A DNA stretch of 64,000 nucleotides, from contig JAWLEO010000004.1 in NCBI GenBank assembly GCA_041686075.1, forward strand, positions 11,006 through 75,005, read 5' to 3'. Shown here in pieces: positions 3,112-44,373 of this stretch. The stretch is from Bacteroidales bacterium. GTDB lineage: Bacteria; Bacteroidota; Bacteroidia; Bacteroidales; VadinHA17. Made by a program: the position numbers and the translations under genes. The notes under the pieces are model-generated. The model was not told the DNA's origin and searched no databases. It saw nothing but the letters and a program-made list of their open reading frames with translations. Each line of letters starts with the position of its first letter. The stretch's first letter is position 1.

Positions 3112-4053
3112 TTATTTTGTATCCAGGAAATAAATATTCCCCTCTTTATAATATTCAAGGTTAAAAGTAGTACAAATAATACGGATAATTGTTTCAGGTG
3201 ACTGCTTATCAAAAACAGATGTGACTCTCAGATTGTGTATTTCATCATTTTCAATTTCTATGTTGATATTATGAACTTTTTTCAGATCGGAAATCACTTT
3301 CTCCAGGCTATCACCTTCAAATACCAGTACATCGGTTTTCCAGGCCAGGTAGTTTGGGTCGGGGTTAATATTTTTTGAGGTGTGGTTGTCAATTATTGAT
3401 CCCAGATCTCCCGGTTCAAGTGTCACTGAATGGTTTTCTTTATTGCTGAGCCTGACCTTACCTTCAGTGACAAAAACCTCAACTTTGTTATTTTCTGTAT
3501 TTACGTTAAAGGATGTTCCGAGCACTGTAATGTCAGCTTTACCGGCATCAACGGTGAAGGGCCTGGTGGCATCATATTCAACATCAAAAAATGCTTCACC
3601 TTCCAGCTTCACCCGTCTTTCTTGATTGTCAAAGCGGTCAGGATATTCTATTCTCGAATTCCTGTTAAGAAATACCTTACTGCCATCAGGCAGATTAACA
3701 GGGACATTTTTTTGTTCTATTCCTGCACTTATAACATTCGTATTATTTTTTCCAAAGCCATTTGTTCCAATGTATATGCCTGCAAAGCCAAGCCCGACAA
3801 TCAGTATCACAGAAGCAGCTATTCTGAAAACAGTATTATTGAATATCTTCTTCCTCTTGATAAGATTATCTTCTTCAAACCTGTTATAAAGCTTGTTCCA
3901 TGCTTTATCGGTATCGACTTCGGTATTTTTCACTATTTCATCCATTTCCTTCCAGTATTTTTTAGCAGATTGGTTTTGTCCGGAGAGGAACTCATCAAGC
4001 ATAGTCCTTTCCCTATCTTCCATTTTGTCATTATTTTTTTCTCTTTTTCCCAT
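3112..4053 (-). CDS. FecR-family anti-sigma factor
   Basis: 313 aa with one central TM helix (VFRIAASVILIVGLGFAGIYI) and a periplasmic FecR-like beta-rich domain. The start lies 2 nt downstream of the ECF sigma stop. Confidence 0.8.
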   Translation of the reverse strand: MGKREKNNDKMEDRERTMLDEFLSGQNQSAKKYWKEMDEIVKNTEVDTDKAWNKLYNRFEEDNLIKRKKIFNNTVFRIAASVILIVGLGFAGIYIGTNGFGKNNTNVISAGIEQKNVPVNLPDGSKVFLNRNSRIEYPDRFDNQERRVKLEGEAFFDVEYDATRPFTVDAGKADITVLGTSFNVNTENNKVEVFVTEGKVRLSNKENHSVTLEPGDLGSIIDNHTSKNINPDPNYLAWKTDVLVFEGDSLEKVISDLKKVHNINIEIENDEIHNLRVTSVFDKQSPETIIRIICTTFNLEYYKEGNIYFLDTK

Positions 4054-4600: not shown

Positions 4601-5902
4601 CTAGTTATCAAATAAATCGCTCCACCTGAGCTTCCGGTTGAGTTTTCTTATTGCGGATTCTATACTCTGGTCGGGTTCAATAACATTGTACTCACCCCAG
4701 AAATCAGGATCTGCAAAAGCACTCAATTGTTCAGTAAAGATATCACCTTTTCTGATTTTTTCACGTGATGCAAATTTTATCACTTCCTCTTCAGTCCTGT
4801 CAGTAATAGCTATTTCTGACATTGTGGTGTAAGTTTTATTAAAGAGTTTTCTCTTCCAATTACACTTAAACTCCACTTCAGCACGTGCATATGCAAAGTA
4901 GTACTTACCATCCTGTTCACGGAACTTAACCCTGTAGCTTGCTGCTTCGGGAGTTACTTTCATCCCGAGTGGTTTTTTCCTCACGAAAATTGATGCTGCC
5001 AGGTCTTCATCTTCAAGATTAATGCTGAATTCCGCTTCAGTTATGGCATAAGTGTTCATCTCGACATAAAATTTTCCGAGGAATAAGGGTACTTCTACAT
5101 TTGGACGCTGCTTAAATTCAATTACATAATGAGGCTTTTCATCAATTGTTATGATATTGTCAAGTTTATATTCATATGAGTCCATGATATCATAAGTGAG
5201 TATCCCATATGTATTCTTGGCGATATCAAGCTGTAAAGTTGTAACCGGTCCACCCTGCAGCCGGAACAATACTGTGTCAATCTTTGAGACATCAATATTT
5301 TTCCTTCCTTTGTAGACTTTTGTTGCATCAAACCTGAAAACACTGTTATAGGGAGCTTTAAAGACTTCTATCACAGCTTCAGCTATTGATACGTAATTCC
5401 TGTTTTTCTTGATGGTTTCACGGTAGAAACCTGTCATAAGGTTAGGTACCAAGGCATAATTATCAGGTATATTACTTATTACCTTTTCAATGATTTCTGT
5501 AGGGACTACAGGTTTAACGGTAACTTCCTGTATGGGTATTGTTGCCTGCCTTAGCTCTATAACATTTTCTTCCTCACCGGTTGAGAGATTTACAAGGGGG
5601 ATCTCTTTATTCTTGTAACCTACATACGTTACCTCTATATAGGGATTTTCTACCTTAACGTCTATTTTAAGAAGAAAATCGCCGTCGAGGTTAGACACTG
5701 TTGCCACATTTGTACCTTTCAGGGCAACGGTTGCAAATATCAGGGGGTCACCTGTTTCGTAATCCACTATCTTACCCCTGATTGTAGTAAAAGGTTGTTG
5801 ATCCTGGTCTGATATCTGAGCTTTAACTTCTGCATTGGCACTGAAAGAAGAAATAATACCAAGGATCAAAACAATCATTGTAATATTGATAAATCTTTTC
5901 AT
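4601..5902 (-). CDS. secreted CarboxypepD_reg-like protein, paralog of 1525..3063 without the STN domain
   Basis: Signal peptide MKRFINITMIVLILGIISSFSANA, then IRGKIVDYETGDPLIFATVAL..TVSNLDGDFLL. It aligns with the other paralog by eye (MTGFYRETIKKNRNYVSIAEAVIEVFKAPY vs MTAFYRESVSKKRKLLEYSEAVLELYKSSY; FWGEYNVIEPDQSIESAI vs FWGTDNYVRPEESIKEAL). Confidence 0.7.
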   Translation of the reverse strand: MKRFINITMIVLILGIISSFSANAEVKAQISDQDQQPFTTIRGKIVDYETGDPLIFATVALKGTNVATVSNLDGDFLLKIDVKVENPYIEVTYVGYKNKEIPLVNLSTGEEENVIELRQATIPIQEVTVKPVVPTEIIEKVISNIPDNYALVPNLMTGFYRETIKKNRNYVSIAEAVIEVFKAPYNSVFRFDATKVYKGRKNIDVSKIDTVLFRLQGGPVTTLQLDIAKNTYGILTYDIMDSYEYKLDNIITIDEKPHYVIEFKQRPNVEVPLFLGKFYVEMNTYAITEAEFSINLEDEDLAASIFVRKKPLGMKVTPEAASYRVKFREQDGKYYFAYARAEVEFKCNWKRKLFNKTYTTMSEIAITDRTEEEVIKFASREKIRKGDIFTEQLSAFADPDFWGEYNVIEPDQSIESAIRKLNRKLRWSDLFDN

Positions 5903-42677: not shown

Positions 42678-43166
42678 ATGGCAAAAGTATACCTGGGACT
42701 GGGTTCTAATATTGGCGAGCGGTATGAAAACCTTGCAGAGGCAAGGAAAAGACTGACCGGTTTGTCTTTTGAGATATTATCGGTTTCACCCGTTTATATT
42801 TCAGAACCATGGGGCTTTAAAAGCAATAATGATTTTTATAACCAGGTGATTGAAGTTAAAACTGATGTTGATCCCTATGACTTGCTGGATATTATCCAGG
42901 AGACAGAAAACAAAATGGGGAGAGAGCGAAGAATAAAAGGTTATTCAGACAGGATTATTGATATTGATATTCTCTTTTACGATAATAAGATAATAAGCAG
43001 TAAACCTTTGATTATTCCACATCCGCTTCTTCATAAACGTATGTTCGTTCTACAACCTATGGCTGATATAGCCCCTGAGTTTATACACCCGGTGTTTAAT
43101 AAAACTATTGAAGAATTGATGCAAGAGTGCGAGGATCCCCCTTTGAAGGGGGTCAGGGGGATGTGA
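42678..43166 (+). CDS. folK: 2-amino-4-hydroxy-6-hydroxymethyldihydropteridine diphosphokinase (last ~10 codons supplied by a repeat unit)
   Basis: 162 aa. V.LGLGSN.G, SPVY.SEPWG, R.IDIDIL.Y, IPHP.L..R.FVL.P motifs. The C-terminal EDPPLKGVRGM is encoded by the first 31-bp repeat copy. Confidence 0.88.
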   Translation: MAKVYLGLGSNIGERYENLAEARKRLTGLSFEILSVSPVYISEPWGFKSNNDFYNQVIEVKTDVDPYDLLDIIQETENKMGRERRIKGYSDRIIDIDILFYDNKIISSKPLIIPHPLLHKRMFVLQPMADIAPEFIHPVFNKTIEELMQECEDPPLKGVRGM

Positions 43167-43226
43167 TCCCCCTTTGAAGGGGGTCAGGGGGATGTGATCC
43201 CCCTTTGAAGGGGGCCAAGGGGATGT
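43134..43226. repeat. 3 tandem copies of a 31-bp unit GATCCCCCTTTGAAGGGGGTCAGGGGGATGT
   Basis: Copies at 43134-43164, 43165-43195 and 43196-43226; the third has 2 substitutions. Each unit contains the CCCCC-TTTGAA-GGGGG palindrome. Confidence 0.95.
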
Positions 43227-43609
43227 TAATCCTCCTCTCCACCACCCTCAATCTCATGTATTGTTTTCTCAATCACCCTTAAAACATTCCACATTTTTTT
43301 CCTTACTTCATATTCATCAAACCGGATAACCTTGATGCCATAAGATTCAAGGATGCCCTGTCTTGCCTTATCGTTTTCATATTTATGATCATGACTTGAT
43401 CCGTCAATTTCAATAGCCAACATTAGCTCATGGCAATAGAAGTCAACTATGAAATTATCAATAGGTACCTGTCGGTGGAATTGATGTCCCATGGATTTGT
43501 TTTTTATTTCCAGCCAGAGAAGTACTTCTCCCAGAGTACTCTTTTTGCGTAATATTTTAGCAAGTTCTTTTAGTTTTGGCTTATAGGGAATTATTTTATT
43601 TTTTGGCAT
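43226..43609 (-). CDS. DUF559 / Vsr-like endonuclease-domain protein
   Basis: 127 aa. ..LAKILRKKSTLGEVLLW..I.....GHQFHRQVPIDNFIVDFYCHELMLAIEIDGSSH......D..R...L...GIKVIRF matches the DUF559 pattern (aE..LW, kFrRQ.pi..yivDFyc...kl.iE.DG..H, vlRf). Confidence 0.85.
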   Translation of the reverse strand: MPKNKIIPYKPKLKELAKILRKKSTLGEVLLWLEIKNKSMGHQFHRQVPIDNFIVDFYCHELMLAIEIDGSSHDHKYENDKARQGILESYGIKVIRFDEYEVRKKMWNVLRVIEKTIHEIEGGGEED

Positions 43610-43633
43610 GTGTCAGGTGTTTAGGTTTTTTTT

Positions 43634-43682
43634 TACATCCCCCTTGTCACGCTGCGCGTGACTTTCCCCCTTCAAAGGGGGA
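43634..43682. repeat. reverse-complement copy of the 31-bp unit, split by an inserted perfect hairpin
   Basis: ACATCCCCCT + [tGTCACGC-tgc-GCGTGACttt, stems at 43645-51 and 43655-61] + CCCCCTTCAAAGGGGGAGC. The uninterrupted reverse-complement unit would be ACATCCCCCTGACCCCCTTCAAAGGGGGATC. Confidence 0.85.
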
Positions 43683-43689
43683 GCCCCTT

Positions 43690-44373
43690 CTATATCATCC
43701 CATTATCCGCATAGCTGTAATAACCGTTATCGGTTACGATAATATGGTCGAGCAGGCTGATATCAAAATAAGCTACAGCTTCCTTGATCTTTTGTGTTAT
43801 ACGGTTGTCAGCCTCGCTGGGGTCCAGGTTCCCCGAAGGATGGTTGTGGCATATTATCATTGAAGAGGCAAGCAATTCAAGTGCCTTTTTTACTATTAAA
43901 CGTACATCGGTTATGGTGCCGCTGATTCCTCCCTGGCTTAATTTGTGGCGACTCAGTATTTTGTTAGACCTGTTAAGGTAGAGCAACCAGAATTCTTCAT
44001 GGGTGAGATCGGCCAGCAGGGGATTGAATATGGTATACACATCATTGCTTGACCTAATTTTAGCAGCTTCAATTATCTCTGCTGATTTGCGTCGACGTCC
44101 AAGTTCAAGGGCAGCCATAATATTAATTGCTTTGGCCGTTCCTATCCCTTTTAGTTTAACCAGGTCATGTACATCCAGCTTACCAAGACGGTTCAGGTTA
44201 TTGGAAGCAAGATTCAATATTTCGCGTGCCAGGTCCACAGCAGATTTATCATTACTACCGGAGCCGATCAATATGGCTAATAGTTCAGCATCGCTCAGGC
44301 TTGAAATACCTTTATAAAGGAGTTTTTCGCGGGGCCTGTCCTCCAGGGCCCAGTCTTTAATTTTTAGTGACAT
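43690..44373 (-). CDS. radC: RadC-family JAB-domain protein
   Basis: 227 aa. N-terminal HhH-like region (L.D.ELLAILIG.G) and the JAMM motif HNHPSG..PS..D. Confidence 0.88.
   Translation of the reverse strand: MSLKIKDWALEDRPREKLLYKGISSLSDAELLAILIGSGSNDKSAVDLAREILNLASNNLNRLGKLDVHDLVKLKGIGTAKAINIMAALELGRRRKSAEIIEAAKIRSSNDVYTIFNPLLADLTHEEFWLLYLNRSNKILSRHKLSQGGISGTITDVRLIVKKALELLASSMIICHNHPSGNLDPSEADNRITQKIKEAVAYFDISLLDHIIVTDNGYYSYADNGMI

Follow-up and report, generated by a model that had tools for sequence, protein, structure and literature searches.

A DUF559 nuclease gene and its flanking hairpin-plus-box repeats: a candidate REP/RAYT-like element of Bacteroidota and other bacteria

Between folK and radC in a 64-kb stretch of DNA from a Bacteroidales bacterium (hereafter the window), a gene for a small DUF559 protein is enclosed by inverted copies of a short palindromic repeat unit. 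Our analysis of this block (43134-43682) and of related loci in other genomes, labelled L001-L128, suggests that it is a copy of a widespread and long-lived nuclease-plus-repeat element, which resembles the repetitive extragenic palindromic (REP) sequences and their REP-associated tyrosine transposases (RAYTs) but is built on a nuclease of the EDxHD/Vsr fold. We give this reading a probability of roughly 55%. The DUF559 nuclease would be the functional analogue of a RAYT with its population of REPs or REPINs (inverted REP doublets). It would bind the unit at its pseudopalindromic core of 14-16 bp, probably as a dimer like the homing endonuclease I-Bth0305I, and its substrate may be single-stranded or an extruded hairpin. 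A nick or cut at the unit could then cause units, and on rare occasions the entire cassette, to be copied by way of repair, recombination or replication. Linkage, co-variation and conservation point to the units as the putative cognate sites of the nuclease. The comparison with RAYT/REP pairs had already been drawn in an initial annotation made from the letters of the window, and it proved to be the best analogy.

The nuclease gene and its units in the window

The following features make up the block (positions in the window):

43134..43164, minus strand: 3' unit, copy c, gene-distal; ACATCCCCCTGACCCCCTTCAAAGGGGGATC on the gene strand, consisting of box, GA linker and hairpin
43165..43195, minus strand: 3' unit, copy b, same sequence as copy c; missing from GCA_046482335.1, where the locus is otherwise identical
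43196..43226, minus strand: 3' unit, copy a, gene-proximal; ACATCCCCTTGGCCCCCTTCAAAGGGGGATC, with 2 mismatches; the DUF559 stop codon ends on its first A
43226..43609, minus strand: DUF559 gene, 127 aa; its TAA stop codon shares the last base with the third unit
43610..43634, minus strand: A-rich leader of 25 nt between upstream unit and ATG, not conserved in syntenic relatives
43635..43644, minus strand: box of the upstream (5') unit, ACATCCCCCT forward and AGGGGGATGT on the gene strand; gene-proximal half of the inverted repeat
43645..43664, no strand assigned: self-complementary insert of 20 nt in the box-hairpin linker, TGTCACGCTGCGCGTGACTT, with the stem GTCACGC/GCGTGAC around TGC
43665..43682, minus strand: hairpin of the upstream unit, TCCCCCTTCAAAGGGGGA forward and TCCCCCTTTGAAGGGGGA on the gene strand

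Read along the gene strand, the 5' side runs from the radC stop codon through the TCCCCCTTTGAAGGGGG hairpin, the 20-nt insert, the AGGGGGATGT box and the 25-nt leader to the ATG, and the 3' side runs from TAA into three repeats of ACATCCCCCT box, GA and CCCCCTTCAAAGGGGGATC hairpin. The three tandem 31-bp units reported in the initial annotation were recovered by Tandem Repeats Finder as a period-31 array at 43134-43226 (3.0 copies, 96% matches, score 172), the one strong array in the 64 kb. The unit GATCCCCCTTTGAAGGGGGTCAGGGGGATGT had 3 matches within 3 mismatches, compared with 0 in 100 shuffles, and was absent from the rest of the window at the same tolerance; all four occurrences of the core CCCCCTTNNAAGGGGG in the 64 kb lie inside 43134-43682. 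The inverted unit upstream of the gene is present too, but it is not the uninterrupted copy that had been described, as the 20-nt insert parts its box from its hairpin. This hairpin is complementary to the downstream hairpins at 17/17 positions, and in the predicted fold the insert forms its own separate stem. The upstream unit is uninterrupted in the syntenic relatives, with L004, L007 and L010 compared at the insert position, and an insert resembling that of the window occurs in the downstream units of L093.

A terminator or promoter role of the units was rejected. Neither strand has a terminator-like site at the units, the hairpins being followed by ATCACAT or TCAGGGGG instead of a T-run, and there was no consistent promoter consensus. 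Among the Rfam covariance models none reached its gathering threshold in the window region (the best, Clostridiales-2, scored 28.8 vs 58.6 bits and was judged a chance similarity of G5/C5 hairpins), and in 17 related loci tRNAs were the only matches.

The open reading frame (ORF) at 43226..43609, whose predicted length and 1-nt overlap with the third unit were both correct, matches the Pfam family DUF559 (PF04480) over profile positions 2-108 of 109 (E = 2e-27, 95.6 bits vs a cut-off of 20.6). The only other Pfam matches were PF18741 and PF10881, with no transposase domain. We compared an AlphaFold 2 (AF2) model of the protein (pLDDT 84) with known structures. The closest was the DUF559 entry 3HRL (Foldseek E = 3e-6, TMt 0.83; sequence E = 7e-13, profile 8e-19), followed by the catalytic domain of I-Bth0305I (3R3P; Foldseek E = 3e-4, TMt 0.76; profile E = 0.009). 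Weaker Foldseek matches were mitoribosomal proteins of Toxoplasma and Tetrahymena (TMq 0.57-0.65), probably RAP-domain proteins, and Vsr (1CW0, E = 0.06). Residues E28, H73 and D80 were invariant in 30 homologs, D56 was at least 90% conserved, and the IEIDGSSHD segment was conserved as well. In the alignment with I-Bth0305I, the counterparts of D56, H73 and D80 are the EDxHD residues D196, H213 and D222; we infer that E28 matches E170 of I-Bth0305I, as the alignment begins past that residue. These matches lead us to predict that the product of the window gene is a small DUF559 endonuclease with the Vsr/EDxHD fold and an intact catalytic site. Since I-Bth0305I works as a dimer and cleaves a 14-bp pseudopalindrome at its centre (PMC3239194), the 14-16-bp pseudopalindromic core of the unit is the natural candidate site for the window protein.

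A true Vsr repair endonuclease was rejected, since the ORF had no match to PF03852 (Vsr) and no cytosine methyltransferase was found among the 18 genes within 10 kb of the DUF559 gene; its sequence presumably differs from that of Escherichia coli Vsr. The gene neighbourhood contained no Y1 (HUH) transposase.

Linkage and structure of the units

A scan with one genome per species yielded at least 598 relatives of the DUF559 protein. The best 80 were kept, 78 of them with usable flanks (53-81% identity), and they occupy 66 distinct genomic contexts. The hosts include Flavobacteriaceae, Pontibacter, Bacteroidales, Marinilabiliaceae, Sphingobacteriaceae, Chitinophagaceae and Balneolaceae, together with metagenome-assembled genomes (MAGs) of Calditrichaceae, Scalindua and Neomarinimicrobiota. 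We compared the best inverted repeat between the 200-nt flanks of each gene with that in displaced control windows. The flanking repeat lay above the control 95th percentile in 79% of the 78 loci and above the 99th in 68%, with a median score of 42.5 at DUF559 loci vs 17 in controls. Within 250 nt of the genes, which amounts to 40 kb, a structural detector found 174 units vs 36 in the other 537 kb; this corresponds to 4.3 vs 0.067 units per kb and an enrichment of about 64-fold; several of the far-off matches adjoin a second DUF559 copy. On both sides the orientation is constant, with the box toward the gene and the hairpin outward. We conclude that the linkage of DUF559 genes and flanking units is general: other DUF559 genes are flanked by units as well, a point that the initial annotation had raised as a question for paralogs, and the scatter of units with no enrichment at such genes that it had named as a refutation was not what we found.

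Each unit consists of a box (ACAY followed by a C-run), a linker of 2-4 nt and a pseudopalindromic C-run/G-run hairpin, the 5' arm of which repeats the box. Four variants were distinguished:

ACATCCCCCT-NN-CCCCCTTCAAAGGGGGA: window clade, other Bacteroidales, Capnocytophaga and Scalindua
ACACCCCTAAAGTCCCCTCAAGGGGACA: most Flavobacteriaceae and one Pontibacter clade
ACACCCCTAACCCCTCTCAAGAGGGGAA: second Pontibacter clade
ACATCTCCC-[GCCCnnnGGGC]-ACCCTCTTCAAAGAGGGAAT: Sphingobacteriaceae-like genomes

The C-run of the box is as long as that of the hairpin arm in 56/79 distinct units, showing that box and hairpin co-vary within the unit. Base pairing was counted at 8 pairs in units pre-selected for at least 5 perfect inner pairs, so that only the two outer pairs are independent evidence; these were kept in 60/63 and 61/63 units as CG, UA, GC or AU, a pattern indicating that the hairpin is kept up by compensatory changes. 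The asymmetric centre T-CA-A stood in fixed orientation relative to the box in 46/79 units. Where the two could be separated, unit type tracked the protein clade and not the host taxon, as in the two Pontibacter clades and in the grouping of Capnocytophaga with Bacteroidales.

Extra self-complementary stems recur in the box-hairpin linker, as in the upstream unit of the window, and their tolerance is a hint that the functional form may be single-stranded DNA or RNA. The units might then act in RNA, in intercistronic processing, stabilisation or translation, with DUF559 as a RAP/FASTK-type protein that recognises the units and binds or cuts RNA, and the cassette as a self-contained expression module. 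Several observations agree with this. The linker accepts inserted stems (43645-43664 in the window; GCCCnnnGGGC in L038, L062 and L087; inserts in L043, L021 and L071), some of them with compensatory variants, as expected of a single-stranded functional form. A unit can lie as near as 3-10 nt to an ATG, so that it must be transcribed; solo units in the Winogradskyella paa operon described below all point from hairpin to box to the next ATG; and DUF559 is co-oriented with its upstream neighbour in 59/74 loci. In predicted folds the box and the 5' arm vie for the same 3' arm. The mitoribosomal Foldseek matches fit as well, and Vsr-like FASTKD4 acts on mRNA (PMC11879112). Against an RNA role, the two sides of the gene carry complementary and not identical sequences, which one RNA-binding specificity cannot both read, and all composite catalytic residues common to the DNA endonucleases Vsr and I-Bth0305I are conserved. 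No Rfam family matched the window region or the 17 related loci, and insertion polymorphism, tandem cassettes and gene-less doublets would be left unexplained. We regard the RNA explanation as unlikely, although an RNA role could coexist with DNA mobility.

In several Flavobacteriaceae units an insert of about 45 nt (..TRAGCTAYGCTCGRTATCTT.., A/T-rich) recurs in the linker (L015:3880-4000, upstream in L046, L107:3390-3470, downstream in L045). It has the same position as the 20-nt insert of the window, and the linker may thus be an insertion hot spot.

In a preliminary survey we also inspected seven distant DUF559 records (33-41% identity). Judged by eye, hairpin-plus-box elements lie beside the gene in 7/7. 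A strict detector found them in 6/7, with none in Sinorhizobium L127, where the linkers are longer and the elements adjoin the gene by eye. A generic detector gave 14 matches in 8.7 kb around the six non-E. coli genes; in the 64-kb window it gave 3 true matches and 1 other, vs 0.65 in shuffles. The individual records were as follows:

Picosynechococcus PCC 7002 pAQ6: CCCCCAGAATGGGGGTCAGGGGGCA and CCCCGATTCGGGGGCTAGGGGGCA upstream, toward the ATG; GCCCCTAAATCCCCGTTCCGGGG at the stop codon
Synechocystis B12 plasmid: element right upstream of the ORF start (detector, 535-567) and a second at the gene 3' end, by eye
Deinococcus psychrotolerans: the gene is an insertion that separates paaD from paaZ and has inverted repeats of about 55 bp in the order box-hairpin-gene-hairpin-box
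Neisseria gonorrhoeae: elements beside a homolog of the 3HRL protein
Photobacterium: elements adjoin the DUF559 gene
E. coli K-12 ycjD: as the next element downstream, a GC-rich imperfect palindrome of 59 nt

Those outside E. coli are located at L124:490-560 and 925-1185, L126:425-470 and 855-905, L125:515-550, 1125-1165 and 1228-1262, L128:870-1055, L127:880-1045, and L123:530-567 and 940-980. In Picosynechococcus, box, linker and arm are nearly identical to those of the window: the cyanobacterial unit reads CCCCCTGACCCCCATTCTGGGGGA vs CCCCCTGACCCCCTTCAAAGGGGGA in the window, with proteins just 39% identical.

The 59-nt element of E. coli was present in each of 5,426 genomes, at a median of 17 places per genome. 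Given its size, its copy number and the first description of BoxC, reportedly near envM/fabI, it is probably BoxC, which RefSeq leaves unannotated here. Like the units, BoxC elements are GC-rich imperfect palindromes (about 56 bp) with C-run/G-run arms and a repeated G-rich box (..CCCCTCTGGGGAGAGGGTTAGGGTGAGGGG..), and the copy that we identify as BoxC lies about 170 nt 3' of the DUF559 gene ycjD. The difference is that BoxC is not alignable with the unit of the window. K-12 has 33 BoxC copies of 51-59 bp (PMC5172473). It is tempting, though clearly speculative and in our estimate possible but doubtful, to extend the proposal to DUF559/COG2852 proteins (18,991 clusters at 50% identity, E <= 1e-3) as partner nucleases of pan-bacterial GC-rich hairpin-plus-box repeats including BoxC, which would make a second system mechanistically distinct from REP/RAYT, with a Vsr/EDxHD-fold nuclease that spreads or maintains short palindromic repeats.

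The association could also be passive. An independent REP-like family, spread by another enzyme or by slippage and recombination, might surround a dispensable gene, with DUF559 having an unrelated host function, e.g. in repair. Gene-less solo units and arrays do occur, array copy number varies by simple slippage, and at the folK-radC locus considered below folK of L093 keeps a 3' unit although DUF559 has moved away and the spacer of L092 keeps hairpins without the gene; the annotation of these proteins by JGI is very-short-patch-repair endonuclease. As noted above, though, the protein is not a true Vsr (PF04480 and not PF03852; no cytosine methyltransferase within 10 kb). Passive association does not account for the 64-fold enrichment with a fixed box orientation to the gene on both sides, nor for an association that persists across phyla and over protein identities ranging from 91% to as low as about 35-40%, nor for a unit type that tracks the protein clade inside one genus. 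In the same loci a unit is found at about 5% of other intergenic junctions vs 85-90% of DUF559 junctions. With about 33 BoxC copies in the 4.6 Mb of E. coli, the chance of finding one within 400 bp of ycjD is about 0.6%. We therefore hold a purely passive association to be quite unlikely.

Insertion, fusion and inheritance of the cassette

In Winogradskyella, homologs of a pyridoxal phosphate (PLP)-dependent threonine dehydratase (81-95% identity) are either 311 or 440-456 aa long, the two forms being interleaved by identity, and the longer form carries PF04480 in addition to PF00291. In L118 and L119 the compact paa operon is free of units, and the TAA of the enoyl-CoA hydratase (ECH) gene abuts the TTG start of the dehydratase (PALP) gene. 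In L017 and nine other genomes, unit, DUF559 and unit stand at the exact ECH/dehydratase junction, the dehydratase gene has lost its start codon, and the DUF559 ORF continues via the downstream unit (..KTPLKSPQGDN..) into the dehydratase. In L017, solo units occupy two more junctions of the paa operon, all oriented from hairpin to box to the next ATG. The comparison of a pristine empty site with the filled site identifies the cassette as an insertion, and the sequences show that it was gained or lost between close relatives.

In total, 16/84 loci have the DUF559 ORF joined in frame to the gene that follows, which encodes a complete host protein: threonine dehydratase in 10, RnpA in 5 and CutC in 1 (L015, L017 (3998-5347), L030, L033, L047, L048, L060, L070, L072, L075; L016, L018, L036, L051, L058; L063). 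The fusion ORFs contain no DUF559 stop codon and no ATG between the two parts, and their linker (..TPLKSPQGDN..) changes in length by in-frame indels only. Host ORFs can thus read into units or fuse with the nuclease ORF.

Cassettes also occur in multiple copies. Tandem cassettes 98-99% identical in DNA were found in Lacinutrix and Aureibaculum, and in Algibacter two cassettes of 83% identity flank a methyltransferase-like gene (tandem and multi-copy cassettes: L034:4001-4987, L046:4001-4933, L013:4001-6591, L106-L115 and L066). L066, a 621-bp contig of Winogradskyella marina, has the same sequence at both ends, which suggests a collapsed multi-copy element, and in many long database representatives DUF559 stands at either end or is repeated 2-3 times. 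About 10 gene-less doublets with 30-60 nt between the boxes were present in the flanks of relatives. The insertions lie at gene boundaries, and the terminal inverted repeats measure 28-37 bp. A unit-mediated origin was rejected for the variable island beside the Algibacter cassette, the breakpoint of which is about 200 nt from the units.

Carriage by phages or plasmids was rejected as well. Among 2.9 million viral contigs, unit B had 0 matches and unit A had 2 solo exact matches, both without DUF559; plasmid records held distant DUF559 homologs only (33-41%), and phage records held 2. The two viral solo units are located at L116:2715-2741 and L117:6384-6410, one of them in a high-GC contig unlike Bacteroidota.

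The window copy itself lies between two convergent host genes:

42678..43166, plus strand: folK (HPPK; PF01288, E = 6e-38)
43690..44373, minus strand: radC (E = 1e-42), upstream co-oriented neighbour of DUF559; the cassette lies directly 3' of radC

The block had been thought to fill the spacer between these genes. The convergence is correct, but folK runs on into the repeats: unit 1 plus 2 nt of unit 2 supply its final 33 nt (43134-43166), unit 1 accounts for the last 11 codons, and the TGA is created where units 1 and 2 meet. Repeat DNA thus encodes the C-terminus ..EDPPLKGVRGM*.

The radC-DUF559-folK arrangement is common to relatives with DUF559 proteins 78-91% identical to that of the window, and it is also found in the Marinilabiliaceae MAG L011 (73%). 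In all these relatives inverted units flank the gene, 1 to at least 3 of them upstream and 2-4 downstream; a relative with the gene at this locus but without the repeats, which the initial annotation had named as a refutation of its proposal, was not among them. The downstream array comprises 2 units in GCA_046482335.1 (L001:10385-10446) and 3 in the window and in GCA_964562315.1. Protein identities to the window were as follows:

L004: RadC 97%, DUF559 91%, FolK 87%
L007: RadC 94%, DUF559 78%, FolK 74%
L093: RadC 93%, DUF559 81%, FolK 68%
L011: RadC 78%, DUF559 73%, FolK 46%

DUF559 identity declines in parallel with that of RadC and FolK, and the dN/dS of DUF559 was 0.09-0.15, with dS from 0.36 up to saturation. 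Parallel divergence and low dN/dS identify the folK-radC copy as a long-standing, vertically inherited resident under purifying selection and not a recent invader. The selfish cassette proposed by the initial annotation thus fares differently at different loci: the pristine empty site, doublets, solo units and tandems support it for the element, whereas recent mobility of the window copy is not supported. Among syntenic relatives 0-2 nt of the units have changed, and the leader that precedes the ATG is unalignable; thus the units have been conserved or homogenised well past neutral expectation.

An empty folK-radC spacer of the kind sought in relatives does exist. In the metagenomic relative L092 (RadC 92%, FolK 68%) folK and radC converge without DUF559, and the 83-bp spacer contains one intact and two decayed hairpins but lacks boxes. 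With the gene present in the outgroup L011, its loss from L092 is the parsimonious reading. In L093 (2950-3045 and 3200-4900), the block of tRNA, rpsT, radC and DUF559 cassette is inverted relative to folK when compared with the window, and folK still has a disrupted unit at its 3' end, split by an insert of about 50 nt. In the metagenomic relative L007, a DDE transposase of the insertion sequence (IS) type (PF01609; 95-1372) is encoded about 2 kb away on the upstream side of the syntenic cassette and is unrelated to it.

Presence/absence polymorphism at conserved loci (L092 vs the window clade; L118/L119 vs L017) would also be expected of a classical free-standing homing endonuclease, which cuts one host sequence and is copied by homologous repair, with the repeats as halves of a split target. 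I-Bth0305I is indeed the second-best structural match, and box plus inverted box would make a perfect palindrome of 16-20 bp split by the gene. The cassette, however, stands in 66 different insertion contexts and has complete hairpins on both sides instead of half-sites, the empty site L118 lacks a palindrome or unit, no intact box-box palindrome was found in 888 kb, and the window copy is retained under purifying selection after fixation and is not decaying. A classical site-specific homing element, to which the block had initially been likened, is therefore a very unlikely explanation.

Some of these results, and others, also count against the REP/RAYT-like reading that we prefer. Physical linkage alone would co-inherit gene and units. 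Target-site duplication was not seen, and about 50 cassettes had no flanking k-mer in common; the 888 kb contained no intact box-box palindrome, and the empty site L118 offered no obvious target, having neither unit nor palindrome. A dispersed repeat population is the hallmark of REP/RAYT, but there were no solo units in the other 63 kb of the window. The left and right units of one cassette can differ in subtype (L028, L029 and L063), which also makes a strict matched-ends transposase model unlikely. Lastly, the cross-phylum sample is small (7 loci) and partly chosen post hoc, and in Deinococcus the nesting is opposite, with the boxes distal.

Comparison with known systems and significance

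The closest parallel is provided by REP/REPIN-RAYT systems, in which a usually single-copy enzyme gene stands between inverted copies of a short extragenic palindromic repeat, and the repeat exists as singlets, short-spacer inverted doublets and arrays. Vertical inheritance, long persistence under purifying selection and the absence of target-site duplication are shared as well; PMC3116915, PMC3337134 and the RAREFAN paper describe REPIN-RAYT systems as single-copy, vertical and persistent. The systems differ in their enzymes, since the DUF559 protein belongs to the PD-(D/E)XK nucleases of the Vsr/EDxHD fold (PF04480) and the RAYT is an HUH Y1 tyrosine transposase of the IS200/IS605 type. They also differ in their repeats: the foot of the REP palindrome is tagged with GTAG or CGTC (PMC3733652), whereas our units have no such tag but ACAT or ACAC at the end of a box that duplicates the hairpin arm. 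In addition, the whole DUF559 gene-plus-repeat cassette is gained and lost and is found in tandem, and no dispersed units were found in the rest of the window.

With I-Bth0305I (3R3P) the DUF559 protein shares the fold and the composite motif (E28/D56/H73/D80 corresponding to E170/D196/H213/D222), and the EDxHD family includes free-standing genes. I-Bth0305I, in contrast, has an N-terminal NUMOD/helix-turn-helix (HTH) DNA-binding region and is encoded in a group I intron at one specific position in recA, whereas the gene for the window protein of just 127 aa occupies intergenic positions in many contexts, with complete repeats on either side. The likeness to Vsr extends to the superfamily fold, and the unit centre T-TG-A/T-CA-A would give T:G mismatches if a strand paired with itself; PF03852 did not match, no cytosine methyltransferase is nearby, and the Foldseek match to 1CW0 is weak.

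Transposons with terminal inverted repeats (TIRs) and miniature inverted-repeat transposable elements (MITEs) resemble the cassette in their terminal inverted repeats (28-37 bp here, about 55 bp in Deinococcus), cargo-less doublets and intergenic insertions. The cassette differs from them in that it has no target-site duplication and no DDE or other transposase, and in that its ends may differ in subtype. Rickettsia palindromic elements (RPEs), reportedly described by Ogata and colleagues in 2000, are likewise palindromic repeats translated in host proteins, as in the folK C-terminus and the ..TPLKSPQGDN.. linker of the fusions; RPEs, however, insert within genes and have no associated nuclease gene.

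Among the matches listed for DUF559 and for YcjD/COG2852 (titles and abstracts, with subscription-only literature outside the search) there was no work concerned with repeats. Searches by the unit sequences gave nothing relevant and those for Vsr-like proteins combined with mobility and inverted repeats gave nothing, the matches listed for REPIN/RAYT or BoxC included no link to DUF559, and no description of a BoxC-ycjD link was found in the literature searched. The partnership of a DUF559 nuclease with repeats therefore appears to be undescribed, although the symbiosis of an enzyme with palindromic repeats as such is already known from REP/RAYT.

If our reading is true, it would provide a first functional context for a very large family of unknown function that includes E. 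coli YcjD and the structural-genomics protein 3HRL. The REP/RAYT lifestyle, a single-copy enzyme with its own short palindromic repeats, would then have arisen independently with another nuclease superfamily, and BoxC-type repeats, the origin and function of which have to our knowledge been unknown since the 1990s, would gain a testable candidate enzyme. A cassette inserting at gene boundaries could end up fused in frame to essential host proteins, e.g. RnpA. Oddities in Bacteroidota annotation would be explained, namely repeat-encoded protein tails and 'threonine dehydratase/very-short-patch-repair endonuclease' fusion ORFs, and a small nuclease with a compact putative cognate site conserved across phyla could serve as a tool.

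Two further observations concern the loci of E. coli and Winogradskyella. In L122:5040-5761 (NC_000913.3, about 1351040-1351760), the 3' end of ycjD is partly duplicated behind the gene, the 59-nt palindrome comes next, and the ycjD ORF ends within a C-run/G-run hairpin. In L120, a Winogradskyella genome without the cassette, a 119-aa PF05635 gene (23S rRNA intervening-sequence protein; 3492-3851) is inserted between the dehydratase and 3HCDH genes of the same paa operon. Several junctions of L120 (intergenic gaps 813-892, 2428-2501, 5088-5178 and 5588-5661) hold GATTAGCGATT-type inserts of about 70-90 nt, the same junctions measuring 0-10 nt in L118; this looks like another family of small cargo and intergenic repeats.

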